Below, piece by piece: positions 2,934 to 61,828 of a stretch of DNA of 64,000 nt. The first letter of the stretch is position 1, and the number at the start of each line of letters is the position of its first letter. Both the position numbers and the translations under genes were made by a program. This stretch comes from an uncultured Bdellovibrionales bacterium (GTDB lineage Bacteria; Patescibacteriota; Minisyncoccia; Moranbacterales; DUUL01), in contig CAYQVD010000004.1 of assembly GCA_964421125.1 (NCBI GenBank), positions 930-64,929 of the forward strand, in the 5' to 3' direction. Below the pieces are notes generated by a model that was given only the letters and a program-made list of their open reading frames with translations, searched no databases and was not told the origin of the DNA.

Positions 2934-3070
2934 ACCAGGGGGAATTTAAAATTATTTAATCGGGTGTTGTGGATATTACTTCGACAAAATAAGTATATTA
3001 AATAAAGGCTTAATTGTCAATTTTATTCACTTAATCAATGCACCCTCCGACATAATTTTACAATTTAGTA

Positions 3071-3107
3071 TATACTAATTTATTACGATGAAATAGTTTC
3101 ATTGTAA
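3071..3107 (+). promoter_or_regulatory. Putative -10 element (TATACT, 3071-3076) followed by the 25-bp near-perfect palindrome TTACGATGAAATAGTTTCATTGTAA (3083-3107). Candidate operator or leader hairpin for the 3145 cassette
   Basis: The palindrome is seen directly. Nearly the same 40 nt recur at 43571-43610. A related GTTAC-N17-GTAAC motif occurs at 56603-56629 and 8702-8728. Confidence 0.45.
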
Positions 3108-3144
3108 TGATAAACAAACAAGTTCTTTAAAAAAGGAGAAAACA

Positions 3145-3837
3145 ATGAATATTCTCATTATCGAAGATAACGAAAATCATATTGAAGATGCAAAAGCAAT
3201 TTTTGGCGAAAACATTGAAATTGCAAAAAACTTGGATGAAGCATGGGAAAAGTTAAGAAAAAATGAATACGATGGAGTAATTTCCGATATATTCTTCTCA
3301 AAGGGAGAATGTAAATCAATTTTTTCTGATGAACACCCAGATTTTGACATCATCACAAGCATGCAATGCCAATATATCCTTGCTGGATATGGAGCAGAAA
3401 ATGATTATGCATTGGGCGCAGATGCTGACGCAAGAGAGTGGTGGATAAAAGTTCTCAGGGAAGTTGAAAAGTGGAATGGATTCAGTGGATATGAACTTCC
3501 TCCAGCAGGGGTCTTGGTTCTCAATCACTGTATCAAACACAACATCCCGATCGTGATGAACACAGACATCAAACATCATGGCTTATCAATTGCTCCAGTT
3601 GAAAGATTATGCATAAACCTCCAAATCCCCGTTATTTGCGAATACGAAGGGAAAAAGCAGTGGAAAGAAGCTCTTGAATATCTCAAAGAAGAACTTCATC
3701 CAGATACAGAAACCATTGCTCACCGCCAAAAACGCCGATCAGAGAAATATGAAACCAAAAATTCTTACAATGGAGGAATTAGAATGAACATATTAAGACA
3801 CCTAATAGAAAGAGAGAAAGAAATTGATTTCTCCTAA
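3145..3837 (+). CDS. Receiver (CheY-like) domain protein with a C-terminal extension; orphan, no kinase nearby
   Basis: MNILIIEDNENH..., ...YDGVISDIFF (Asp-pocket position), ...IPIVMNTD. There is an RBS AAGGAGAA upstream. Confidence 0.6.
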   Translation: MNILIIEDNENHIEDAKAIFGENIEIAKNLDEAWEKLRKNEYDGVISDIFFSKGECKSIFSDEHPDFDIITSMQCQYILAGYGAENDYALGADADAREWWIKVLREVEKWNGFSGYELPPAGVLVLNHCIKHNIPIVMNTDIKHHGLSIAPVERLCINLQIPVICEYEGKKQWKEALEYLKEELHPDTETIAHRQKRRSEKYETKNSYNGGIRMNILRHLIEREKEIDFS

Positions 3838-3838
3838 A

Positions 3839-3961
3839 CATCCGGGAAGTTGCAAAACATTGCGACTTCCCAATTCTCTCGGCTTTATTTGAATTGTTCA
3901 AGCGAGCCCGAGTAGAATTAAAGAATGTACTTTAAAAACTGAATATATAAAGGAGATAGAA
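3839..3961 (+). repeat. Intercistronic structured repeat copy R1 (~110 nt): hairpin GGGAAGTTGC..GCGACTTCCC, then a CTCGG..CCGAG stem, then A-rich spacer and RBS
   Basis: About 108 nt are nearly identical to 4313-4420. A diverged copy with compensatory stem changes lies at 57058-57181. Confidence 0.7.
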
Positions 3962-4303: not shown

Positions 4304-4312
4304 TCACAAAAC

Positions 4313-4431
4313 CCGGGAAGTTGCAAAACATTGCGACTTCCCAATTCTCTCGGCTTTATTTGAATTGTTCAAGCGAGCCCGAGTAGAATTAAAGAATGTA
4401 CTTTAAAAACTGAATATATAAGGAGTGGGAA
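4313..4431 (+). repeat. Intercistronic structured repeat copy R2; followed only by an 8-codon ORF remnant (MKYIRLSL*)
   Basis: Direct repeat of R1, including the RBS and start-codon context. Confidence 0.7.
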
Positions 4432-5945: not shown

Positions 5946-7445
5946 TTATTTCACGTAATACTTCCCTTTTGTCTCTTCTTCTTCCTTTTTCTGTTCTTCT
6001 TTGATTTTCTTTTTTGCTAGGAACCGAAGAGATTGCAAATCTTCTTTTCGAAGTTCTTCCACTCGCTTCATTAATCCTTCCTTTTCATTCAGCTCTGGCT
6101 TCTCAATCACTTCTGCCAAAAGCACATCCAGGATTGCACCAATTTCTCGACTCGGTTTAAAATTCATTTCAGTAATCATAATATCTCCATTAAGCTTTAG
6201 TTGCTTAACAGAAATCGGATCCTTAGAAACTTTCTCTACCATATATTTAAAATGTCGAAGTCGGTACGGCACCGCCTTTGGCACACCACTTCCTAATCGA
6301 TCTGCAATTCTAACATCAATCAAGTCATTAATATTTTCTAATCCCACTTTTCGAATCACTTTTCGCACTCCCGCTTCACCAACTTCATCCACATTATAAT
6401 AAAACATATGATTTTTCACTAATAAAACGGTTTTTTCAATAATTTTCCGTGGATATTTCATTCTATTCATAATTCGATCCACAATTTTTGCTCCTCCATA
6501 TTCATGTCCATAAAAAGTTGCCATTTCCCCTTCTCCTCTTTTTGAATTTGGTTTTCCAATATCATGAAAAAAAGATGCTAACCGCACTTCCAATTTTTCT
6601 GATGGACATTTCTTAAGACTTGCCAACATATGTGCATAAACCGTGTTGTATGGACCATAATAATGATGACGATTTTGTTTCACACCAATTGTTTCAATCA
6701 CTTCTGGAATAAATTGATCCATTAATTTACTTTTAATCAACAACTCAACTCCCTTGCTTGGATTTTGAGAAATAATAATTTTATCAAATTCATCCCGAAT
6801 CCGCTCTTGTGAAATATGTTGCAAGTTTTTTGAATTTTTTTCAATTGACACAAATGTCTTCTTTTCAATCTCAAATCCGATTTGAACTGAAAATCGAATC
6901 GCTCGCATCATTCGAAGCGCATCTTCATTGAATCGCTCATCTGGCTCACCAACCGCTCGAATAACTTTGCTCTCTAAGTCTTTTTGTCCATTAAACAGAT
7001 CAACAATCTCTTTTTGATTCCCTTTCTCATCCAATTCAATTGCCATTGCATTTACTGTGAAATCCCTTCGACTCAAATCTTCTTCTAAAGTTTCTGCAAA
7101 CTGCACTTCATCTGGATGACGCTTATCTGAATAAGTCGATTCAATTCGATAAGTAGTTATTTCAATATTTGGCCCATCAACAGTTTCTTCTTGCTCTGTT
7201 TTAATATATTTTAAAGGAACCATTACTGTTCCAAAACTATTTTCGTATTTCCCATCTGGAATTATTTTCAATAGCTCTTCTGGTTTAGCATTCGTTGTAA
7301 CATCCCAGTCTTTTGGCTCCCCTCCCAACAACAAATCACGCACACAACCACCAACTAGATATGATTCAAATCCAGCTTTTTTAATTTTATTCATAATAAT
7401 CAACACCGATTCCGATATTTTTTGACTTTTCATCAGGTTATCCAC
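5946..7445 (-). CDS. cca: CCA-adding tRNA nucleotidyltransferase / poly(A) polymerase family with C-terminal HD domain
   Basis: GFESYLVGGCVRDLLLGGEPKDWDVTT nucleotidyltransferase head; HD-like HDIGK further downstream. Confidence 0.8.
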   Translation of the reverse strand: MDNLMKSQKISESVLIIMNKIKKAGFESYLVGGCVRDLLLGGEPKDWDVTTNAKPEELLKIIPDGKYENSFGTVMVPLKYIKTEQEETVDGPNIEITTYRIESTYSDKRHPDEVQFAETLEEDLSRRDFTVNAMAIELDEKGNQKEIVDLFNGQKDLESKVIRAVGEPDERFNEDALRMMRAIRFSVQIGFEIEKKTFVSIEKNSKNLQHISQERIRDEFDKIIISQNPSKGVELLIKSKLMDQFIPEVIETIGVKQNRHHYYGPYNTVYAHMLASLKKCPSEKLEVRLASFFHDIGKPNSKRGEGEMATFYGHEYGGAKIVDRIMNRMKYPRKIIEKTVLLVKNHMFYYNVDEVGEAGVRKVIRKVGLENINDLIDVRIADRLGSGVPKAVPYRLRHFKYMVEKVSKDPISVKQLKLNGDIMITEMNFKPSREIGAILDVLLAEVIEKPELNEKEGLMKRVEELRKEDLQSLRFLAKKKIKEEQKKEEEETKGKYYVK

Positions 7446-7516
7446 AACTAGTTAATCCTTTAAATAAAGGTTTACATAATAATAGTACACTATCCACAGA
7501 TTATCAACTTATTTGT
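7441..7516 (+). promoter_or_regulatory. DnaA-box module copy 1: TTATCCACA ... CTATCCACAGATTATCAAC
   Basis: Two consensus-like DnaA boxes about 50 bp apart. The whole ~75-bp module recurs at 9221-9300. Confidence 0.55.
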
Positions 7517-8548
7517 TTATAACTCTTCCTCCTTATTATCAACATCCTCCTTTTTAACAGACAAAAGATCTGGATATTCAATCGCCATTTGAGTAAACTT
7601 ATCTATTTGATAAACCTCGTTCACTTCAACTTGAAAAATAATATCATTAAAATCATGTTTCATCTGATTTATCAACCCTCTTAACGCTTTTCGATCCTTA
7701 ATTTCAATATCCAACATAAGTTGCCAATTCCCCATCACTTTCACATAATTAACAATATTTGGATGTTTCACACAAAATTGATACAAAGACTCCACTTTTT
7801 CTTTGTTAAATTGTTTTATCTTAAATAAAACTCGAAACATTCTTAATCCAATAGATTGATAGTTTAAAGTAAATGTTGTTTTTGTAATAATTCCCTTTTT
7901 AATCATTTTTGTATAACTCCTATGAACAACCCCTGTTGTCACGCCCAAAACCTTTGCCATTTCTGAAAACTCCATTCTCCCATCAATTTGAAGAAGTGAA
8001 ATAATTTTTTGATCTAATTCTGACAGTTTCACTACCTTTTTAAATCCCCCTGAAACACTAACGCTTTCTTCTTCGTTTTCTTTATTAAGAAAATACGATC
8101 GAGGAAATTTCAAAAATCCCAATCCAACCACAATCTCACTCATTGTGATGTATTTACCAAATTCACCAAAAACCTCTTGAAGAATTTTATTGTGACTAAA
8201 AACATCTTGGGCAATGATTGCAATAAAAGCATCTGCATAGCCATCACATCGAAAAATAATTGGGATATACTTATTTTCTTTTAATTTCAAAAACATCGCA
8301 TCTTGTTGATCTTTAGTGAGACCACTAAATTTCAACCAATATCCCCAAAAAAATGAATATCCCACTCGATCATAATCAATAAAAGCCCAAAAATGCTTAA
8401 TAACCTCTTCATCCCTAAATCTTGCCATATGATACTTTACTACTTGTGGAGAAGTTTTAATATTTCTAGCTATTTTTGAATAACTAGCTCTTCCATCTTT
8501 TTCAAGCTCAAATAGTATTTTTTTGTCTAAATCTGTTAATTTAACCAT
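7517..8548 (-). CDS. Tandem-duplicated Lrp/AsnC-type wHTH regulator (two HTH_AsnC-like modules in one 343-aa protein)
   Basis: The first module LDKKILFELEKDGRASYSKIARNIKTSPQVVKYHMARF is repeated as LDQKIISLLQIDGRMEFSEMAKVLGVTTGVVHRSYTKM. Confidence 0.55.
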   Translation of the reverse strand: MVKLTDLDKKILFELEKDGRASYSKIARNIKTSPQVVKYHMARFRDEEVIKHFWAFIDYDRVGYSFFWGYWLKFSGLTKDQQDAMFLKLKENKYIPIIFRCDGYADAFIAIIAQDVFSHNKILQEVFGEFGKYITMSEIVVGLGFLKFPRSYFLNKENEEESVSVSGGFKKVVKLSELDQKIISLLQIDGRMEFSEMAKVLGVTTGVVHRSYTKMIKKGIITKTTFTLNYQSIGLRMFRVLFKIKQFNKEKVESLYQFCVKHPNIVNYVKVMGNWQLMLDIEIKDRKALRGLINQMKHDFNDIIFQVEVNEVYQIDKFTQMAIEYPDLLSVKKEDVDNKEEEL

Positions 8549-8701
8549 TTTTCGATATTAATTTCACTAAATTTACAAAAATAACTGTTTTTAAAAACTT
8601 ATTATTTTTAAATAATTCTATTTTAATAACATCTTACACTACTTTTTAAAACTAATCAACAAAACTATTGAAATATTATCTATTCTATGCTATTATATCT
8701 C

Positions 8702-8728
8702 GTTACGATAAAATAGGTTCAAAGTAAC
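8702..8728 (+). promoter_or_regulatory. GTTACGATAAAATAGGTTCAAAGTAAC leader palindrome (family of 3083, 43586, 56603) upstream of the ORF at 8773
   Basis: GTTAC-N17-GTAAC preceded by TATTATAT; the downstream GAAAATTGAATAAAAGGAGAGGGAAATG is also conserved with the 43658 leader. Confidence 0.45.
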
Positions 8729-8772
8729 AACTTAAAGGAAGTTCATTGAAAATTGAATAAAAGGAGAGGGAA

Positions 8773-9153
8773 ATGAAAAAAAGAAATGAGTTATTAAAAT
8801 CCTTGGATAAAATTAATGGTGGAAGCGACTGGAAAGACATGCAATTTGAATTCTACTGCTTTTGGTCTAATAACCATACGTCCTCGGTCCCTCCTGGACA
8901 CATAGACACAAAAGAAGAAAATTTATTGAGAAATTTTGGTTTTGACCTAAATGCTCGTTTTATCTTCCATGTCAATTATGTAAGTTATGGTAGCATGGGA
9001 CATGAAAATTACACAGTTGCTCATATTGTCAGAAACGCGATTCTTGATCCAGAATATGACATGGAACAATTCCGAGAAGAATACACCAAAGGGAGTGATG
9101 GTTATACTTATTGTTCTACCTTCTCCATAACCATAAATCCTAAAACTTCTTAA
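8773..9153 (+). CDS. Hypothetical protein (126 aa)
   Basis: Strong RBS GGAGAGGG and the conserved leader; no recognisable domain. Confidence 0.5.
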   Translation: MKKRNELLKSLDKINGGSDWKDMQFEFYCFWSNNHTSSVPPGHIDTKEENLLRNFGFDLNARFIFHVNYVSYGSMGHENYTVAHIVRNAILDPEYDMEQFREEYTKGSDGYTYCSTFSITINPKTS

Positions 9154-9220
9154 TTTCTTATTACCAAAATCTTATCAAAAACCTACTAAAAACCTCTTTT
9201 ATTATCATGATTTCATTTTT

Positions 9221-9300
9221 TCTTAAGTTATCCACAAGGATTTAACCCTTTAAGTAAAGCTTTTTATGATAAACTTTTTCTATCCACAGATTGCTAACAG
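9221..9300 (+). promoter_or_regulatory. DnaA-box module copy 2: TTATCCACA ... CTATCCACAGATTGCTAAC
   Basis: Near-duplicate of 7441-7516 with the same box spacing and the shared CCTTTAA.TAAAG core. Confidence 0.55.
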
Positions 9301-9410
9301 AAACTATACAACTAAATACCTTTTTGTGCCCCCAGCAGAAATCCCTTATTCCCTGTCTGCCATTATTCAAATCTTAAACACAACTAAAATAAAGAAACTC
9401 CTCTAAAATG

Positions 9411-9482
9411 TGTCCTTGCCAGGAGTCGAACCTGAATCTAAAGTTTAGGAAACTCTTATTCTATCCATTGAACTACAAGGAC
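9411..9482 (-). tRNA. tRNA-Arg (anticodon CCT)
   Basis: The reverse complement GTCCTTGTAGTTCAATGGATAGAAT...UUCCUAA loop...GGTTCGACTCCTGGCAAGGACA folds as a cloverleaf. Confidence 0.75.
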
Positions 9483-9488
9483 TTGTTG

Positions 9489-9561
9489 TGGAGATAAGGA
9501 GATTTGAACTCCTGCCCTTTTCCGTGCCACGGAAACGCTCTACCAACTGAGCTATATCCCC
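9489..9561 (-). tRNA. tRNA-Ala (anticodon GGC) with the G3:U70 identity pair
   Basis: The reverse complement GGGGATATAGCTCAGTTGGTAGAGC...GUGGCAC loop...AGGAGTTCAAATCTCCTTATCTCCA folds as a cloverleaf. Acceptor position 3:70 is G:U. Confidence 0.75.
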
Positions 9562-9650: not shown

Positions 9651-10340
9651 TTAATTGAAACTAAAATTAATTAATATTTTATTTACAATATTAATATCCC
9701 AAAAAACATCAGAGGAAAAATAATCAATTCTACAAACCCCTTTGTAATCTTTCTTTTTTGATGGTTTTCCAATTGTGCGGGGATCAATTTGAACCTTGTA
9801 AAATTGTTCAAAAGAAATCTGGGTTATCTCTTGCCAAAATTTTTCTAACCCTAAGACATCTTGATTAAATCTACATTGTAATGTACACCTAAATTTTGAT
9901 TCGTCAATCTTATAACAATATCTTAAAAGTTTCAAGAATAATTTAATAATGTCTGGATTTGAATTTCCAAAAACCAATGCCCCATTCTCTCTTTTTCCTC
10001 CCTCACCTAAATATAAAACCGCTAAAGCAATTTTAGCAACATCAAAGTCTTTTATTTTAATATCTACTTGCTTATTTTTAAAGAAAAGTGAGTTTAAATA
10101 ATCCTGTTTCTTTTTTCTTTTTGAAATAATTGATTTTTTTCTAGCCTTCTTTAAATTCTTATTTACAATTAATCTTACTTTTTCCTTATAAAAAACAGGT
10201 AACACTAAGCCTTTGCACCAAGTTGACATCGTGCTTTTTGGTATCTCAATCCCAATACTTTTTTTTATTTCTGAATAAGTTAATCCTTTTTTTCTGAAAC
10301 TTATTATCTTTTCTTTAATTTCTTTTGTGTATTTTTTCAT
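9651..10340 (-). CDS. HTH-containing protein with a LAGLIDADG-like motif (LAVLYLGEGG); possible free-standing homing-endonuclease-like or DNA-binding protein
   Basis: N-terminal KIISFRKKGLTYSEIKKSIGI is HTH-like; LAVLYLGEGGKRENG resembles a single LAGLIDADG motif with an acidic Glu. The gene lies directly beside the palindrome array. Confidence 0.4.
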   Translation of the reverse strand: MKKYTKEIKEKIISFRKKGLTYSEIKKSIGIEIPKSTMSTWCKGLVLPVFYKEKVRLIVNKNLKKARKKSIISKRKKKQDYLNSLFFKNKQVDIKIKDFDVAKIALAVLYLGEGGKRENGALVFGNSNPDIIKLFLKLLRYCYKIDESKFRCTLQCRFNQDVLGLEKFWQEITQISFEQFYKVQIDPRTIGKPSKKKDYKGVCRIDYFSSDVFWDINIVNKILINFSFN

Positions 10341-10496: not shown

Positions 10497-11045
10497 TGTT
10501 TCACGTGAAACATTCTGAAATATAAAAATCCTCTTATTAAGGCCTTCAAAAATTAACAAATTTTTAAATTTTCCCTTTTTGTTTCACGTGAAACAATCTG
10601 AAATGTAAAAGCCTTAATAATAGGGGTTTTATAAATTAACAAACTTTTGAAACGCATGAAAATGTTTCACGTGAAACATTCTGAAATGGAAAAGCCTTAA
10701 TAATAGGGTATTGTAAATTAATAAACTTTTAAAGTATCCCTTTTTGTTTCACGTGAAACATTTCTTAGTTTTTAATTGCTGTTTTTTAATCTAAATTGTT
10801 TCACGTGAAACATTTTATAACGTTAAACATAAATAAAGATCCTTTCTTAAATGATCCTTTTTGTTTCACGTGAAACATTCTGAAAAAACCAAATAAAACC
10901 AACTAGCTATAAAGACCATGAGATAAGCATATCCAAAAGTTATCAAATTTTAAAAGGATTATAATTGTTTCACGTGAAACATTTTAATAATAACCTACTT
11001 GACAATTTCACCTCCCTTAAATGCTATAATGTTTCACGTGAAACA
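10497..11045. repeat. Array of 8 copies of the perfect 16-bp palindrome TGTTTCACGTGAAACA (at 10497, 10580, 10663, 10745, 10797, 10862, 10966, 11030); the first four sit in ~83-bp tandem units
   Basis: Every copy is identical. Flanking sequence is partly conserved between units: CCTTTTTGTTTCACGTGAAACATTCTGAAAT.GAAAAGCCTTAATAATAGGG..TAAATTAACAAAC. Confidence 0.9.
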
Positions 11046-11214: not shown

Positions 11215-11260
11215 ACAAAAGTTATCCACACCCTCCACAGGATATCCACAAGTTCTGAAC
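11215..11260 (+). promoter_or_regulatory. DnaA boxes upstream of dnaA (GTTATCCACAC, GATATCCACAAG), probably within the dnaA promoter region
   Basis: Matches to TTATCCACA about 100 bp before the dnaA start. Confidence 0.6.
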
Positions 11261-11351
11261 ACTTACCTTGTTGCTTAGTTGTAGATAATAATATAAGATA
11301 TATAAATCAATTACTTAGGGGGTAATTTTTTTATTGTAAATACAAAAAGTT

Positions 11352-12936: not shown

Positions 12937-13521
12937 ATGAACAAAGAAACACCACAACAAGAAACTATTAAAGGTCAAAAAGAAGTCTCAATAGAAAACC
13001 AGGAAAAGATAGATTTAAAATGGAATATAGTAAATAACCCTAACTCTACTGAGGAATATCTTGAAGACATCACTGATTCTAATAAACAACTTGAACGGTA
13101 CCAAGAAAGAGGGAACGGATTTAGACATCTCAGTATTTTTAAAGAAAATATTAATCAGGGAGAAATGATAAAGGAAGTGCTTAATGAAAATGGTGATAAG
13201 GATAAGTTTAATGAGGTTGATGAAAATTTACAAAATTATAAAGAAAAACTAAAAGAGACAGTTGATATAATTGCAAAAAAATGGGAAGACGATTTAAATA
13301 TGGGGCGATTAATGATTTTAGAAGAATTATATACAACTTTAGAGGATAATAAAGAAGCACAAAAATTTAAAGAAATGTTTGAAGAAAAAAGGAGACCAAA
13401 GGATTTAGTTAAAAATGAGGATGTGGTAGATAAAAAACCAAAACTGATTGATTATTCAGCCCAAGAACAAGAGGATAAACAGCAGACAGAAGAAATAAAA
13501 AAGAAGATAGATGAATTATAA
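12937..13521 (+). CDS. Acidic, Lys/Glu-rich hypothetical protein inserted between dnaA and dnaN
   Basis: 194 aa, low complexity, predicted coiled coil. Confidence 0.5.
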   Translation: MNKETPQQETIKGQKEVSIENQEKIDLKWNIVNNPNSTEEYLEDITDSNKQLERYQERGNGFRHLSIFKENINQGEMIKEVLNENGDKDKFNEVDENLQNYKEKLKETVDIIAKKWEDDLNMGRLMILEELYTTLEDNKEAQKFKEMFEEKRRPKDLVKNEDVVDKKPKLIDYSAQEQEDKQQTEEIKKKIDEL

Positions 13522-13589
13522 CTTATTAAATTTATAATTTAATATCCTGTTAACAACCTGTGAATTAGATGTTAAGGATGTTAATTAAA

Positions 13590-13796
13590 ATGTTAATAAG
13601 TTATCCAAAAACTACTCTACTTTACTATTAATAAGTTATCAACATTAATATTTAATACTTTTAAACTTTTTTATCCCCAAGTTTTAATGCTAATTATATT
13701 TATAAATAAAGGATTTTTATAACTTATTAACATAAAAGTTTATAGTAGTAATAATAGTATTTAATAATATATATAATTTATATAACTATACACACC
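13590..13796 (+). promoter_or_regulatory. Putative oriC core: DnaA-box-like sites (TTATCCAAA, TTATCAACA, TTATCCCCA) followed by an extremely AT-rich unwinding element just upstream of dnaN
   Basis: The boxes lie at about 13597, 13627 and 13671. Positions 13680-13795 are more than 85% A+T, and the region sits in the canonical dnaA-dnaN position. Confidence 0.55.
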
Positions 13797-14945
13797 ATGA
13801 AATTTACTTGTAAAACAAATAATTTAAAAGAAGCAGTTAGTAAAGTTGAAAGAATTGTTTCTAAACAAACAACCTTACCAATTTTAGCTAATATTTTAAT
13901 TAAAACAGAAAAAGGAAGGTTGTTAATTGGAGCAACTAATCTTGAAATAGCAATTCGTTCTTATGTGGGAGCTAAAATTGAAAAAGAAGGAGAAATAACT
14001 ATTCCAGCTAGAATATTAAGTGGTTTTTTAACTAGCATTAGAGATGATACTGTAAAATGTGAGTTAAGTGGAACAGAATTAAAGGTTAATTCTGAAAATC
14101 ATAAAATTAAAATAAAGGGGATGGAAGCAAAGGATTTTCCAATTATTCCTCAAGTGCCAAGTGAGTATTTTATTAAAATAAATTCTAATAATTTTAATAA
14201 AGCAATTCCAGGATTATTAGTTTCAGTTGCTCATAATGATACTAGACAGGAATTAAATGGGATATTAATTAAGTTTTCGTTGAAGGAAATTGTTTTTGCT
14301 TCAACAGATAGTTTTCGATTAACTGAAACTAAAATTGAATTACCAGAAGAGGCAATAGGTGAGGATTATGAGGTTTTTATAAATAATACACCGTCAATTA
14401 TTATTCCTTATTTAACTCTTTCTGAATTACAGAGAATTATTGAAGATGGTGAGTTTGAATTAATAATTAGTCAAAATCAATTATTTATTAAAAATGATTC
14501 AGTTAATTTAATTTCAAGGCTAATTAATGGAAGTTATCCAGAATATAATCAGGTTTTACCAGAAAAATATGAAATAGAAGCTAGGATTAATAAAAGCGAA
14601 TTTTTAAATGCTCTTAAAATTGCTTCGTTAGTAGCATCGGTTAATAATGGTGAAGTTAAAATTAGTAATTCTAAGAATAATAAATTTTTAAAAATATCCG
14701 CTGAGTCAGTTGATTCAGGAGAAAATATTTCTAAAATTGAGGCTGAGATAAGTGGTCCAGAATTTGAAGTTATATTTAATTGTCGTTATTTATTAGAAGG
14801 ATTGAATATAGTTGAATCAGATGTTGATAATATTTTATTGAAGTTAAATCCTAGTAAATCACCAGTTATGATTAGAGGATTGAAATCTGAAAAAGAGGAA
14901 GATGAAAAATTTTCTTATGTGATTATGCCTATAATTAAAGGATAA
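13797..14945 (+). CDS. dnaN: DNA polymerase III beta sliding clamp
   Basis: 382 aa; the opening MKFTCKTNNLKEAVSKVERIVSKQTTLPILANILIKTEKGRLLIGATNLEIAIRSYV is typical of DnaN. Confidence 0.9.
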   Translation: MKFTCKTNNLKEAVSKVERIVSKQTTLPILANILIKTEKGRLLIGATNLEIAIRSYVGAKIEKEGEITIPARILSGFLTSIRDDTVKCELSGTELKVNSENHKIKIKGMEAKDFPIIPQVPSEYFIKINSNNFNKAIPGLLVSVAHNDTRQELNGILIKFSLKEIVFASTDSFRLTETKIELPEEAIGEDYEVFINNTPSIIIPYLTLSELQRIIEDGEFELIISQNQLFIKNDSVNLISRLINGSYPEYNQVLPEKYEIEARINKSEFLNALKIASLVASVNNGEVKISNSKNNKFLKISAESVDSGENISKIEAEISGPEFEVIFNCRYLLEGLNIVESDVDNILLKLNPSKSPVMIRGLKSEKEEDEKFSYVIMPIIKG

Positions 14946-42633: not shown

Positions 42634-43422
42634 TTATTCTATCTTATCGGTCGTATTTTGCAAATCTTTTTCTTGGAAATTCTTGGTTTCTGGTAGAAGA
42701 TTCCACATCACTTCAAAGATAGACTTAATTCCTTCAAAAATTTTTGAACTTTCAATGATAATCCCCAAGTCTTCTTTGTATGAAATTATTCCTAGTTTTG
42801 TCTTCCCGTAAATTTTTATTTCTAAATCAAGTCCAGAAAAGGCATTATCTGCGGAAAATTTTGTTTTAGTGATTCCTTTTTCTTTTATATCTTGAGCAAA
42901 GACTCTGTTTTCGGGGGAGTCAGGGACAATAGCTCTGGCCCAAATTTTTTTATTAATTCTTTCGGGCAAGTAATGTTTCCAGAAGTATTCTTCACCAAGA
43001 TTAATGTATGGATAAGGATACCAAGTCAGGATTTCCTGGTTACTATAGCGTAATGTGTCCTCAAAAACTTCTTTAACTCCAGTTAATCCCTCGAAATACC
43101 TTATTTTTGGCTTTTTATCAAGTAAGTTCATTATTGAGAGCAGTTCAGGCATGGTTTCTTCAAGCGTCTTTTTTTTAGTCTCCAGTGACTCAATGAGTTT
43201 TTGGGGGTTTTCTGCTAGGAAAATCGGCTTTTTCCCGCGGTTTGTTTGGCTTATTATTCCTTTTTTCTTAAGGTTTTCAAGGACATCATAGACAGTAGAA
43301 CGCTTGATTCCTGATTTTTGGACAATTTTAGCAATACTGGCTTCACCAAGTTCCATGATCGCTAAATAGACTTTAGCTTCTTTTTCTTCTAGCCCTGCAT
43401 CAATAAGTTTTTGAATAAGCAT
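42634..43422 (-). CDS. TrmB-like wHTH regulator (paralog 2)
   Basis: KEAKVYLAIMELGEASIAKIVQKSGIKRSTVYDVLENLKKKGII; C-terminal domain conserved with the other paralogs. Confidence 0.7.
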   Translation of the reverse strand: MLIQKLIDAGLEEKEAKVYLAIMELGEASIAKIVQKSGIKRSTVYDVLENLKKKGIISQTNRGKKPIFLAENPQKLIESLETKKKTLEETMPELLSIMNLLDKKPKIRYFEGLTGVKEVFEDTLRYSNQEILTWYPYPYINLGEEYFWKHYLPERINKKIWARAIVPDSPENRVFAQDIKEKGITKTKFSADNAFSGLDLEIKIYGKTKLGIISYKEDLGIIIESSKIFEGIKSIFEVMWNLLPETKNFQEKDLQNTTDKIE

Positions 43423-43573
43423 GGTTTTTGTTAAAAATAACGCTTTTTGCGTCGTTATTACTAGTATAGCATATATTGCTAAATTTGTCTATAGATAAAG
43501 CGTTTCCAATATCTTCCTAAACTTTTAAATAGGCTTGTTTGACATAACTATTGCCAAATGGGTCATTTTGTTG

Positions 43574-43610
43574 TATACTAATTTATTACGATGAAATAGC
43601 TTTATTGTAA
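43574..43610 (+). promoter_or_regulatory. TATACT -10-like element followed by the palindrome TTACGATGAAATAGCTTTATTGTAA (second copy of the 3071-3107 element)
   Basis: GTATACTAATTTATTACGATGAAATAG is identical to the 3069-3095 region. Confidence 0.45.
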
Positions 43611-43657
43611 GAAGAGGAAGATAGTTCGTTGAAAATTGAAGATAAGGGAGAGGGGAA

Positions 43658-44544: not shown

Positions 44545-45489
44545 TTATTTTCTCTTAGAATATTTTTCATAAACTTCTTTTAGTTTTTCATTGGTGACAT
44601 GGGTGTAGATTTGGGTAGTGCTGATGGAGCTGTGGCCAAGCAGGGATTGAACGCTTCGAATGTCAGCGCCATTTTGAAGAAGATTTGTGGCGAAGCTGTG
44701 ACGAAGAACGTGAGGGGTAACCTTTTTGAGAATACCGGCTTTGGCGGTGTATTTTTTTATCATTCTTTGTATTGATCGAGGAGTGAGACGCAAGTTTGAG
44801 TGCTCGCCGGGATTTTTAACGATTCTAACAAAAAGAGCGGGGTCAACATCGGTTCTTTTTTCGAGATATTTCTGAATGATGTCTCGAGCCTCTTCTGAAA
44901 TAAAAACAATTCTAATTTTTGAGCCTTTTCCTATCACGGAAAATTCTCTCTTTTTTAAATTAATTTGATCACGGTTTAACCTTGTTAATTCAGAAATTCG
45001 AAGTCCAGAAGAAAACAAGAGAATTAGAATGGCTTTATCTCTTTTTTGAGCCAGGGCTTCTCCGTCGGCAGATTTGATTATTTCTCGAACTTCTTCAATA
45101 GTGAGAAAATCAATTACACGGTCTTTCGTTTTTGCTAGTTCAATTTTTTCTGGAGCAAGTGATTTAATATTTTTTTTAGTAAGATACCCCAAAAAACCTC
45201 TTAGTGCGATAATGTAATAATTTTGAGTTCTGTGAGTGATTAATTTTTTATGAGGTCCCTTTTGACGGCTTAAAGAAACTCTGAATTTATGAACAATTTC
45301 TTCTGTGATTTCTTCTGGATTTTTTAGTTTTGACCATTTTAAAAATTTTAAAAGATAGCGATCATAGTTTTCAATTGTTTTTGGAGAACGATTTTTATCT
45401 ACTTCTAAATATTCTAGGAAATCAGTCTTTAATTTTTGTAAATTATTCATTGAAAAATGATATTTTTTATGATACACTCTTTTTACCAT
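44545..45489 (-). CDS. xerC: Tyrosine site-specific recombinase, XerC/XerD-like
   Basis: C-terminal HVLRHSFATNLLQNGADIRSVQSLLGHSSISTTQIYTHV (R..H..Y triad) and a Xer-type N-terminus. Confidence 0.8.
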   Translation of the reverse strand: MVKRVYHKKYHFSMNNLQKLKTDFLEYLEVDKNRSPKTIENYDRYLLKFLKWSKLKNPEEITEEIVHKFRVSLSRQKGPHKKLITHRTQNYYIIALRGFLGYLTKKNIKSLAPEKIELAKTKDRVIDFLTIEEVREIIKSADGEALAQKRDKAILILLFSSGLRISELTRLNRDQINLKKREFSVIGKGSKIRIVFISEEARDIIQKYLEKRTDVDPALFVRIVKNPGEHSNLRLTPRSIQRMIKKYTAKAGILKKVTPHVLRHSFATNLLQNGADIRSVQSLLGHSSISTTQIYTHVTNEKLKEVYEKYSKRK

Positions 45490-48557: not shown

Positions 48558-49310
48558 TTAATAACTTTTTATTTTTACTTTGGGCAAATTATCCCACAAA
48601 AGTTCAAAAATTGTTCTTAGTGTTTTATGGATTTCTGCTCCTTCAATAATAATTCCTATCTCTTCTCTCGAAGACATTAAGGCAACTTTTTGATGACCAT
48701 AAATATTAATTTCAACAGAAAAGGGATATTTTTTAGCATCAATTAATTTTGATGTACGTAACTGTTTTTGGTCTTTGTCGAAAAAGTTTTTCTCAATTAT
48801 TCCAGTTTTAGTCATAATTGCACGTACTCGTAAACCTTTTTCTATTCTTTTTTTAAGATAATCATTTGTCCAATCGATTCCCAAAACATTTACTACGTCT
48901 TCTGAGGCGAATGCTAACATTTCTCCGGAGTAACTTAGTGTATCCGTATAAACTTCCCTAAGACCGTTTTTTCCTTCATAAAATCTAATTTTTGGTCTTA
49001 TTCCTTTAATATTATACATGGATTTTAATATAGGCAACATTTCATCGAGTATTCTCTCTTTTTCAATTACTTCTTTCTTTATTTTTTCTGGATTTTCTGC
49101 TACAAAAAAACGCCTTTTTTCTTTAAAAGTCTCATAAATGAAATTTTCTTTTTTTAGATTAACTAAAATGTCATAACAAGTCGTTCTCTTCACTTCTGAT
49201 TTTTTGGCGATTTCAATAACTGTTCCGCTACCTAATTCTAAAACAGCTAAATAAATATTTGCTTTTTTTCCTTCAAGATCAAATTTTTTCAGAAAATCTT
49301 TTATTTGCAT
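48558..49310 (-). CDS. TrmB-like wHTH regulator (paralog 3)
   Basis: KKANIYLAVLELGSGTVIEIAKKSEVKRTTCYDILVNLKKENFI. Confidence 0.7.
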   Translation of the reverse strand: MQIKDFLKKFDLEGKKANIYLAVLELGSGTVIEIAKKSEVKRTTCYDILVNLKKENFIYETFKEKRRFFVAENPEKIKKEVIEKERILDEMLPILKSMYNIKGIRPKIRFYEGKNGLREVYTDTLSYSGEMLAFASEDVVNVLGIDWTNDYLKKRIEKGLRVRAIMTKTGIIEKNFFDKDQKQLRTSKLIDAKKYPFSVEINIYGHQKVALMSSREEIGIIIEGAEIHKTLRTIFELLWDNLPKVKIKSY

Positions 49311-55686: not shown

Positions 55687-56430
55687 TTAAAAAGAATTTT
55701 CATCTTCTTTTGCACCTTTCCATGCAAGCTTGAAAAGAAAGGTCATGTTTTTTGAAATTTCGGTGCTTTCGATGATTAGTCCGAGTTGTTCTGAAAAACT
55801 CATGAAAGCCACTTTGTTTTCATAAATATTCATTTCAATTGTGAAAGGAAAATCTTCTTTTGAGACAAGTCGAGTTTCTTTAATGTCTCTTAAGTCACCC
55901 TTCTTGTATTCAATTAGCTCTTCTGTGTCTGGCCCAATAGCCCGAACTGCAATTTGGGCTTTTTTTCTCTTGTCTCGATATTCATCAGCAAATTCTTGTC
56001 CAAGTTTTTTAATAATATTTTCTGTGACAAAAGCATAGAGATCTCCTCGGTATTTCAATGTATCTCGATAAACATCCTTGATTCCATTAATTCCTTCATA
56101 GTATCGAATAACAGGTTTTTCTCCGGATGTGTTCACTAAAGATTTTAAGGCTGGCATAAGAATCTCCAGTTTTTTTTGTTTTTCCTCAATAATTTTTTCA
56201 AGATTTTCTGGTTCTTCGGCGATAAACAAGCGTTTTTTGCCTTTTTTGGTTTGAGCAATCAAGCGTTTTTTTTCAAGTTCCGCCAAAACTTCATAAACAG
56301 TGGTTCTTTTGATGCCAGTTTTTCTTGATATTTCAATAACAGTCGATTGTCCCAGCTCCAAAAGGGCAATATAGGTTTCTGCTTGGTTATAATTCAGTCC
56401 AAATTGAGATAATTGTTCTGATATTTGCAT
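55687..56430 (-). CDS. TrmB-like wHTH regulator (paralog 4)
   Basis: NQAETYIALLELGQSTVIEISRKTGIKRTTVYEVLAELEKKRLI. Confidence 0.7.
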   Translation of the reverse strand: MQISEQLSQFGLNYNQAETYIALLELGQSTVIEISRKTGIKRTTVYEVLAELEKKRLIAQTKKGKKRLFIAEEPENLEKIIEEKQKKLEILMPALKSLVNTSGEKPVIRYYEGINGIKDVYRDTLKYRGDLYAFVTENIIKKLGQEFADEYRDKRKKAQIAVRAIGPDTEELIEYKKGDLRDIKETRLVSKEDFPFTIEMNIYENKVAFMSFSEQLGLIIESTEISKNMTFLFKLAWKGAKEDENSF

Positions 56431-56602
56431 GTTTTTGTTGTTAAAACATTAAAATGTCGTAAAAATATGACAACATTTATATTATATCATAATCACCATA
56501 AAAGTCAATTAAATAGGGCATTATTCAAAAGTTTAGAAACTTTTAAAACAGTCATAAGTCGTAAACGATTGACAAATACTTAAAATTGTGATATATTATA
56601 TT

Positions 56603-56629
56603 GTTACGATGAAGTTGTTTCAAAGTAAC
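56603..56629 (+). promoter_or_regulatory. GTTACGATGAAGTTGTTTCAAAGTAAC leader palindrome preceded by TATATTATAT
   Basis: Same GTTAC-N17-GTAAC architecture as 8702-8728 and related to 3083-3107. Confidence 0.45.
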
Positions 56630-56652
56630 AAGTAAAAAAAGTTCTTTAAATT

Positions 56653-57057: not shown

Positions 57058-57181
57058 AAAATCGGGAAGCTCTGCTTAATAAGCACCTTCCCAATTCTCT
57101 CGGGGTTATTTGAGTGGTTTAAATAGCTCCGAGTAGAGTTAAAGTTATTTGAAATTGAATATAAAAAAAAGGAGAAAGAAA
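57058..57181 (+). repeat. Intercistronic structured repeat copy R3 (diverged; GGGAAGCTCTGC..GCACCTTCCC hairpin, CTCGG..CCGAG stem, TTAAAG, RBS)
   Basis: About 70% identical to R1 and R2, with compensatory substitutions in both stems. Confidence 0.65.
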
Positions 57182-61660: not shown

Positions 61661-61828
61661 TTAAGAGCCTGTTAAGAAAATCTTTTTTCTTATGCAATTT
61701 CCAAATTTAAGCTACAAGAAATTCATCACTCGTCAATATATCACCGATATATTTCCTCGTGCTTCATTCCTTTCACTTTAAATTTGAAAATTTCGTAACG
61801 AAAAAGATTTTCTTAACAGGCTCTGGGA
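61661..61828. repeat. Imperfect ~27-bp inverted repeat (TTAAGAGCCTGTTAAGAAAATCTTTT ... AAAAGATTTTCTTAACAGGCTCT) enclosing ~115 bp, followed by a terminator-like hairpin
   Basis: Seen directly downstream of the 3D-domain gene. Confidence 0.6.

Follow-up and report, generated by a model that had tools for sequence, protein, structure and literature searches.

Paired DnaA-box modules near the predicted replication origin of a Patescibacterium as candidate auxiliary DnaA-binding sites

Introduction

Clusters of DnaA boxes located outside oriC in Bacillus subtilis bind DnaA stably, regulate neighboring genes, and restrain initiation (PMC3245932). In Escherichia coli, the datA locus, a DnaA-box cluster centered on an IHF site and positioned past the glyV-X-Y tRNA operon, is regulated by transcriptional read-through and negatively regulates the initiator via DnaA-ATP hydrolysis (PMC10950094). 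DnaA also serves as a transcription factor at box-bearing promoters, including its targets in B. subtilis (PMC3245932) and, as reported for Pseudomonas aeruginosa, gidAB-parAB (PMC13438810). At oriC itself, tandem DnaA boxes, DnaA-trios, and AT-rich DNA constitute the basal unwinding system (BUS) (PMC8287927). Here, two noncoding modules carrying DnaA boxes, M1 and M2, are described from a 64,000-nucleotide stretch of a Patescibacterium (contig CAYQVD010000004.1, positions 930 to 64,929), which is referred to as the window and to which all positions refer unless a related locus is named. The Patescibacteria, or Candidate Phyla Radiation (CPR), have strongly reduced genomes and for the most part remain uncultured, and a literature search found nothing on replication initiation control in this group. 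The DNA of the window has a G+C content of about 30%, and its nearest named protein homologs are annotated as Moranbacteria or Parcubacteria.

Like the B. subtilis clusters, M1 and M2 are intergenic and close to a predicted oriC. The interpretation put forward here, which is given about an even chance of being correct, is that they are origin-proximal auxiliary DnaA-binding modules with a regulatory or titrating role and are not part of the unwinding origin. The DNA had previously been annotated from its letters alone in a preliminary description, the claims of which are taken up below where the results bear on them.

Architecture of the two modules

A repeat search of the window aligned M1 with M2 at 74% identity across 82 nucleotides (nt) with an offset of 1,790 bp. 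The preliminary description of two near-duplicate DnaA-box modules about 1.8 kb apart, bracketing an Lrp-like regulator gene and a small open reading frame (ORF), is thus borne out, with slightly corrected coordinates (Table 1). The 65-nt cores of the two modules are identical at 50 positions. Six other places in the window have identities of at least 50/65, most of them clearly repetitive, as in the parS array, and no pair at this level occurred in eight first-order Markov simulations of the window. Each module consists of a perfect DnaA box (box a), a spacer with a central palindrome, and a second, extended box (box b), and the distance from the start of box a to that of box b is 52 bp in both. 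The motif CCTTTAA.TAAAG, previously noted in a spacer of about 45 bp, does occur at the same place in both copies, but the spacer is 43 bp long. In M1, box b is followed by box c in tandem, head to tail, with starts 11 bp apart and 2 bp between the boxes; the corresponding position in M2 (9291-9299) is degenerate. Each module thereby contains a perfect box and a 1-mismatch box, plus a 2-mismatch box in M1, within 72 bp. Box a and the b-c pair are separated by about five helical turns, which places them on the same face of the helix.

In total, 39 DnaA boxes with no more than one mismatch were found in the window, compared with an expected 20.1 ± 4.6, and none of 100 shuffles reached 39. Only three perfect boxes (at 7438, 9228, and 11222) are present in the 64 kb, all on the plus strand, within a span of 3.8 kb, and in the origin region. 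A search of the 64-kb window allowing one to two mismatches revealed no further copy of the palindrome or of the extended box b. The window ends on its right about 0.2 kb short of the end of a 96.7-kb contig, and toward the left a single contig of 2.7 kb was recovered.

Conservation of the modules in related genomes

Alignment with orthologous loci, a check named in the preliminary description, showed that two related species carry the module too, at the positions of M1 and M2; box b is unchanged in these copies, the spacing is kept, and the palindrome covaries. In locus L050, the CCA-adding enzyme of which is 80% identical to that of the window, the module is located between the Lrp2 and cca genes, which is the M1 position (TTGATAATCTGTGGATAG...CTTGTAATAACAAG...TGTTGATAA). 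L050 also contains a perfect box just before the cca ATG (box and ATG, TTGTGGATAAACTGATGAAAAGT), as in M1, separated from the module by an insertion of about 160 bp. In L047 (DnaA, 88% identity; CCA-adding enzyme, 78%), the module is located downstream of two tRNA genes, which is the M2 position (TTGATAACCTGTGGATAG...CCTTATTTTAAGG...TGTTAATAA), and no module is found in front of cca. The gene order in L047 is dnaN-dnaA-parS array-tRNAs-module-TrmB gene-Lrp2-cca. All four copies of the module share A[TC]CTGTGGATAG without change, and their boxes are spaced 52 to 53 bp apart.

In the variable parts of the alignment, M1 of the window pairs with the L050 module and M2 with the L047 module. Since the copies group in this way, both paralogs predate the split of these species, and on this alignment the module is an old duplicate. 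The alternative offered in the preliminary description, duplication of a module-bearing segment, therefore holds for the module of about 80 bp, which was duplicated before the split from the relatives, but not for the 1.8-kb segment. The palindrome also varies among the four copies, with 3 of its 6 pairs changed on both sides (C-G to U-A, U-A to C-G, and U-A to G-C) and with arms that differ in sequence and spacing between species (CCTTTA/TAAAGG, CCTTA/TAAGG, and CTTGT/ACAAG); this covariation was equaled by 11 of 500 shuffles. Of the other noncoding DNA between 7.4 and 10.4 kb, none was aligned by blastn between the window and L047. Contigs of the same species from other samples are 100% identical and thus carry no information on polymorphism.

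Among the fetched loci, the composite formed by boxes b and c (GATAAYCTGTGRAT) is restricted to the modules and to the beginning of this clade's dnaA-dnaN spacer, where its orientation is inverted; 57 of the 67 loci had no match. The recurrence of this composite in the oriC spacer links the module with DnaA and not with another factor. A stricter correspondence, in which the unit in the oriC spacer would equal the module minus one helical turn, was dropped: boxes b' and a' are 32 bp apart in the window, the box in L047 is imperfect, and the two are only roughly in phase. About 60 kb of DNA from close relatives contained no module copies other than the orthologous ones and the unit in the oriC spacer. 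A scan of metagenomes with TTATYMACA-N42-45-CTATCCACAGRTT yielded seven matches, all from unrelated organisms with G+C contents of 51% to 69% and in box clusters resembling their own origins; the clade of the window is evidently absent from that collection, as neither the contigs of the window itself nor L047 came up, and the scan is therefore uninformative on copy number.

Within the insertion in L050 (835-985 of that locus) are a hairpin of high G+C content (CCCCCTTTCGGAAAGGGGG) and the motif GGGGACTAAGGGGGATT; the motif recurs at 640-657 of L050, and the insertion may be a small repeated element.

Position of the modules relative to the predicted origin

The cumulative GC skew of the window reaches its minimum at 11.2 to 12.5 kb, and gene orientation switches between 10340 and 11352. 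A third box cluster near 11215 to 11260 and a fourth between dnaA and dnaN, both of which had been noted previously, were recovered; the boxes in the latter (12801, 13601, 13636, and 13671) have one mismatch each. The spacers flanking dnaA are well conserved among the window, L047, and L061, with a mean column identity of 85% upstream of dnaA and 87% upstream of dnaN. The DnaA proteins of L047 and L061 are 87% to 88% identical to that of the window, the domain IV of which is canonical and keeps the box-reading motifs KPRQ...GGRDHST. About five genomes of the clade with a DnaA identity of 80% or more were found.

Unwinding elements were sought with a rule modeled on the BUS, namely, a box with at most two mismatches followed after 0 to 16 bp by at least three trios that share their central base and run on into AT-rich DNA (PMC8287927). 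Among the boxes of the origin region, trio-like runs of eight adjoin those at 13671 and 13724 alone, which are close upstream of dnaN. The trios were read in the strand orientation that we take to apply. The runs comprise 1 to 2 triplets at the M2 boxes, 3 at boxes a and b of M1, and 6 at box c of M1, the last being coding sequence of Lrp2 and not AT-rich. A run of three triplets reaches the permissive minimum formally, yet it is the commonest chance value in the window, and neither M1 nor M2 has the composition of a BUS. Because of the skew minimum, the conserved spacers flanking dnaA, and the trio-like AT-rich DNA upstream of dnaN, the unwinding origin is predicted to lie at dnaA/dnaN, with the modules 2 to 4 kb to its left. 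Near-consensus boxes are thus clustered above chance in noncoding DNA away from the predicted unwinding origin and are conserved in L047 and L050 (box b fully and box a in part), as in DnaA-box clusters outside oriC. A mirror-image box cluster at 31.8 to 32.1 kb was considered and rejected, as its boxes are dispersed and mostly within coding sequence.

M1 as a putative cca promoter

M1 is located just upstream of cca on the minus strand and takes up the gap of 83 bp that separates the Lrp2 stop codon from the cca ATG. Read on that strand, it consists of TTGATA, 17 nt containing box b, TATTAT, the palindrome, box a, CCTG, and the cca ATG, with box a ending 4 nt ahead of the start codon. TTGATA-17-TATTAT is the sole promoter-like site in the gap, and its hexamers match the consensus at 10 of 12 positions. 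The overlap of M1 with a promoter-like site directly before cca was missed in the preliminary description. The corresponding hexamer pairs read TTGATA-17-TAGTAT in the L050 module and TTGATA-17-TATTGT in the L047 module. At the same place in the more distant L013, TTGATGATCTG...TAGAAT occurs without a box and looks like a version of the module in which the box has decayed; an independent cca promoter is present at that place in relatives. M1 and the L050 module thus show the arrangement of DnaA-regulated promoters, hexamers with overlapping or just-downstream boxes before a gene, whereas M2 has poor hexamers and no downstream gene. The simplest reading of this layout is that M1 is a cca promoter that DnaA could occlude. 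A plus-strand promoter, TTAA[TC]C-17-[CT]AT[AG]AT, present in both copies of the window, was rejected, as it is not conserved in L047 or L050.

A further promoter-like site with a box was observed on the minus strand at 2965-3023, where TTGACA-17-TATACT is followed, about 15 to 25 nt past the -10 hexamer, by a DnaA-like box (ATATCCACA, 2968-2976). This stretch is 86% identical over 59 nt to 14262-14320 of L047, upstream of a TrmB gene, and may be another DnaA-controlled promoter near the origin.

Proposed role of the modules and alternative explanations

In the proposed mechanism, M1 and M2 would be two old paralogs of a module of about 80 bp composed of a high-affinity box a, a 43-bp spacer with a palindrome, and the b-c pair, and DnaA would occupy box a and the b-c pair on the same helix face. 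In M1, box b falls inside the spacer of the -35 and -10 hexamers, box a is situated past the predicted transcript start but before the ATG, and occupancy by DnaA would repress or gate cca transcription. M2, which follows the end of the transcribed tRNA operon at a distance of 118 nt and lies between the 3' ends of that operon and of the convergent 126-amino-acid ORF, has no gene to drive. Because of this position, DnaA bound at M2 could only sequester the initiator near the origin and/or block tRNA read-through, and the conservation of M2 is best explained by DnaA binding as such. Several findings weigh against this interpretation. Characterized titration loci hold far more boxes than the three per module seen here, box a is degenerate in both L047 (TTATTAACA) and L050 (TTATCAACA), and conservation was assessed on only four copies of the module, in three species, a small sample for such statistics. 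The promoter reading fails for one copy, as the -35 and -10 hexamers of M2 are poor (TTAGCA and TTTATC), and the promoter match of M1 may be a by-product, as its -35 hexamer TTGATA coincides with box c. In addition, the regions upstream of cca are free of boxes in the more distant L013, L047/L062, and L051/L064, which indicates that regulation of cca by DnaA would be at best lineage specific.

The preliminary description had suggested a multipartite origin with titration or regulatory sites. In its full form, DnaA filaments on M1, M2, the cluster upstream of dnaA, and the dnaA-dnaN spacer would loop into one complex of about 6 kb. The strong boxes to the left of dnaA all point to it, the tandem unit on the right is inverted, the arrangement is roughly symmetric about the skew minimum, and a tandem-box composite is common to the module and the oriC spacer; bipartite origins flanking dnaA are also known, such as oriC1/oriC2 of B. 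subtilis (PMC3245932) and, as reported, that of Helicobacter pylori. However, genes, the tRNA operon, and the 550-bp parS array intervene between the modules and dnaA, the skew minimum is 2 to 4 kb distant, the boxes of M2 adjoin neither a trio-like run nor an unusually AT-rich element, the only run at M1 is Lrp2 coding sequence, and M1 is absent from L047, in which the dnaA-flanking spacers keep 85% to 87% identity. An extended origin of this kind is considered unlikely. Titration or regulation remains the best reading of the earlier suggestion, whereas the skew, the spacers, and the trio-like DNA speak against the modules as unwinding parts. M2 could also be the older copy and a datA-like locus that inactivates or sequesters DnaA, with a bendable center bound by a nucleoid protein and remodeled with growth by tRNA read-through, M1 being a copy captured as a promoter. 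M2 and its L047 ortholog do lie just past the tRNA operon in the direction of read-through, without a convincing terminator between them in the window, and their boxes are set at a constant distance around an AT-rich palindrome in the center. Nevertheless, the IHF consensus WATCAANNNNTTR was not seen by eye in the spacer, the covarying palindrome arms argue for structure and not for a fixed protein site, the strong bidirectional terminator of L047 sits after the module instead of before it, and the arrangement is found in two genomes only. This possibility, an analogy with datA, is accorded a low probability, and a bolder version, in which M2 and its ortholog would represent datA-like initiator control evolved independently in the Patescibacteria, as a three-box trap reset by tRNA read-through and later copied before cca, a slightly lower one.

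The palindrome raises the possibility that the module is a promoter followed by a 5'-terminal RNA hairpin, M1 driving cca and M2 a small RNA or an antisense or long-leader transcript, and that the boxes are added on or incidental. The minus-strand -35/-10 pair with its 17-nt spacer is kept in three of the four copies, the palindrome comes directly after the predicted start and has three compensatory pair changes, and the strong terminator about 100 nt past the L047 module would give an RNA of about 110 to 125 nt. The folding results do not favor a hairpin: the 46-nt stretches around the palindrome in the four copies have minimum free energies of -4 to -6.1 kcal/mol with z scores of +0.25 to -0.69, indistinguishable from shuffled sequences, and the M1 palindrome stem, at about -3 kcal/mol (centroid) with a z score near 0, is absent from most predicted folds. 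Rfam matched only tRNAs in 1 to 20 kb of the window or around the L047 module, nothing is conserved downstream of box a between M2 and L047, the M2 hexamers are poor, and the most conserved element is a DnaA box, which recurs in the oriC spacer, where the promoter reading fails. Such a promoter and hairpin would explain M1 and perhaps the L047 module, but it accounts neither for M2 nor for the composite in the oriC spacer, and it is considered improbable. Binding sites for Lrp/AsnC regulators are in general style short AT-rich inverted arms, and the palindrome (12 to 14 bp, AT rich, with inverted arms) and the position of both copies beside a regulator gene would suit an operator for an Lrp/AsnC-type regulator or another dimeric palindrome binder, with the copies delimiting a local regulon. 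This explanation is given the least probability of all, as arm sequence and arm spacing vary between species, the promoter region of the regulator itself has no similar palindrome, and L047 has only one copy near the regulator. Moreover, no DnaA boxes flanked the tandem-Lrp gene in 30 scanned distant loci (of 38 fetched; protein identities of 44% to 64%), where the gene is conserved without such modules, so that the modules do not characterize the gene family. A duplicate of 80 bp of origin DNA made by chance or recombination, with no present function, would account for there being only two copies, for their absence from more distant relatives, and for the decayed promoter-like hexamers of M2. 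Yet both paralogs persist at the same positions where the surrounding noncoding DNA (7.4 to 10.4 kb) no longer aligns, box b does not vary, the boxes keep their distance, and the palindrome has changed in a compensatory manner, and a neutral relic is accordingly thought very unlikely. A dispersed repeat or mobile element (miniature inverted-repeat transposable element or att sites) was rejected, as there are two copies in 64 kb, no additional ones in the roughly 60 kb of DNA from close relatives, and no recombinase gene in the bracketed segment.

Gene neighborhood and other features of the window

The genes and noncoding elements around the modules are listed in Table 1.

Table 1. Positions of the modules, the neighboring genes, and the predicted origin elements in the window
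Feature	Position	Strand	Remarks
cca, CCA-adding enzyme/poly(A) polymerase family	5946-7433	-	Pfam PolyA_pol, PolyA_pol_RNAbd, HD; ATG at 7433
M1 box a	7438-7446	+	Perfect DnaA box TTATCCACA
M1 palindrome CCTTTAAATAAAGG	7457-7470		Central, in spacer
Predicted sigma-70-like cca promoter	7479-7507	-	TTGATA (7507-7502), 17 nt, TATTAT (7484-7479)
M1 box b CTATCCACAGATT	7490-7502	+	9-mer CTATCCACA at 7490-7498, 1 mismatch
M1 box c TTATCAACT	7501-7509	+	2 mismatches
Lrp2, fused tandem Lrp/AsnC-type regulator	7517-8548	-	Two HTH_AsnC-type/HTH_24 stretches
126-amino-acid ORF	8773-9153	+	No family match; divergent from Lrp2, convergent with tRNA operon
M2 box a	9228-9236	+	Perfect DnaA box TTATCCACA
M2 palindrome CCTTTAAGTAAAGC	9247-9260		TTTTT next on + strand (9247-9259 is CCTTTAAGTAAAG)
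M2 box b CTATCCACAGATT	9280-9292	+	
tRNA-Arg(CCT) and tRNA-Ala(GGC) operon	9410-9561	-	
229-amino-acid ORF	9651-10340	-	
parS array	10497-11045		Eight perfect palindromes; noncoding
dnaA-upstream box cluster	11222-11288		11222 (+) perfect; 11242 (+) and 11280 (-), 1 mismatch each
dnaA	11352-12761	+	
194-amino-acid ORF	12937-13521		Lysine/glutamate rich, no family match; between dnaA and dnaN
dnaN-upstream spacer	13522-13796		Predicted unwinding part of oriC; in order, inverted tandem-box unit (13546-13567), + boxes 13601, 13636, 13671, and 13724, trio-like AT-rich run (TAGTAGTAATAATAGTAT...)
dnaN	13797-14945	+	

Lrp2 is a single polypeptide with two complete AsnC/Lrp-type helix-turn-helix units. 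Homologs with identities of 55% to 66% and many invariant residues are present in Moranbacteria, Kaiserbacteria, Wolfebacteria, and other Patescibacteria, in varying neighborhoods, and Lrp2 looks like a core CPR regulator. The 194-amino-acid ORF interrupts a spacer that is single and about 265 bp long in L047 and L061. In L051 (9930-10000) and L064 (5740-5810), a tRNA gene lies within about 10 nt upstream of the ATG of the CCA-adding enzyme, which suggests that the tRNA is cotranscribed with its maturation enzyme.

The parS array consists of eight perfect 16-bp palindromes (TGTTTCACGTGAAACA) packed into 550 bp directly upstream of dnaA, the first four of which are 82 to 83 bp apart; by chance, none would be expected. 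TGTTTCACGTGAAACA matches the parS/ParB-site consensus. L047 contains 17 copies of it with 0 to 1 mismatch at the equivalent place (4492-5793 of L047), and L051 has five TGTTCCACGTGGAACA sites within a gene. No ParB gene was found among the ten window ORFs checked, and a full-text literature search combining parS, ParB, and "Candidate Phyla Radiation" returned nothing relevant.

Several other repeats were observed. A motif of about 75 nt, designated D6, occurs at 3061-3142, 8662-8736, 43545-43619, and 56563-56637 and at 10610-10728 of L047; it resembles a promoter (TTGACA...TATAtT) with a conserved hairpin in the leader behind it (GTTACGATGAAATAG...AAGTAAC), and no Rfam match to it was obtained in 1 to 20 kb of the window. 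The copy at 8662-8736 precedes the 126-amino-acid ORF, and the L047 copy lies upstream of a TrmB-family gene. Two copies of a 114-nt direct repeat (98% identity), at 3837-3950 and 4308-4421, are 471 bp apart, and a partial third one (79%) is present at 57087-57144, at a distance of 53 kb. A 79-nt inverted repeat at 61664-61824, with 78% complementarity and 3 nt between its arms, is located just upstream of tRNA-Cys and tRNA-Leu genes. In addition, the window encodes three TrmB-family regulators within 14 kb (42634-43422, 48558-49310, and 55687-56430) and a Xer-like tyrosine recombinase (44545-45489).

Significance of the locus

The locus gives a compact picture of one CPR origin region, with a predicted origin flanking dnaA, a dense parS array, and two conserved auxiliary modules, one of them on the putative promoter of a tRNA maturation gene. 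If DnaA binds M1 and M2, they would be evidence that DnaA-box clusters outside oriC with both regulatory and buffering roles exist in this deep-branching group too, and recombinant CPR DnaA could be studied in vitro with the modules as ready probes. If DnaA does not bind, the modules would be an ordinary small duplication near an origin. Were M2 datA-like after all, replication initiation would be coupled to translation capacity in an ultrasmall genome, and tRNA maturation would be tied to the status of DnaA.

Comparison with known systems

As regards datA, the likeness of M2 lies in its being noncoding, in boxes that flank a central element, and in its position directly past a tRNA operon, which is shared by the L047 ortholog. 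However, datA has no sequence homology to the modules and is neither duplicated nor overlapping a promoter, and no IHF site is recognizable here; the parallel is at most a functional analogy and not homology. With the BUS, the modules share the b-c pair, which corresponds to its box part, head to tail and 2 bp apart, and the same composite starts the dnaA-dnaN spacer. Unlike in the BUS, the boxes of M2 are not followed by a trio-like run or an AT-rich element, and the BUS-like arrangement of this locus is found just upstream of dnaN.

In dnaA autoregulation, DnaA acts at a promoter that carries boxes. The predicted layout of M1 is that of DnaA-regulated promoters, with one box in the core promoter, another in the leader, and a gene adjoining the origin. 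It differs from known examples in that the cca arrangement is confined to a small clade (the window and L050), and cca is not among the DnaA-regulated genes named in the literature compared. The closest counterparts are the B. subtilis clusters, which are likewise mostly near oriC and some of which are located between convergent genes, as M2 is, and the two-part origin of B. subtilis flanking dnaA resembles the one predicted here. In contrast to those clusters, the modules have three boxes in a fixed architecture of box a, 43 bp, and boxes b and c, occur as two paralogous copies, and belong to an uncultured Patescibacterium. On balance, M1 and M2 are best filed in the known class of auxiliary DnaA-box clusters and DnaA-controlled promoters.

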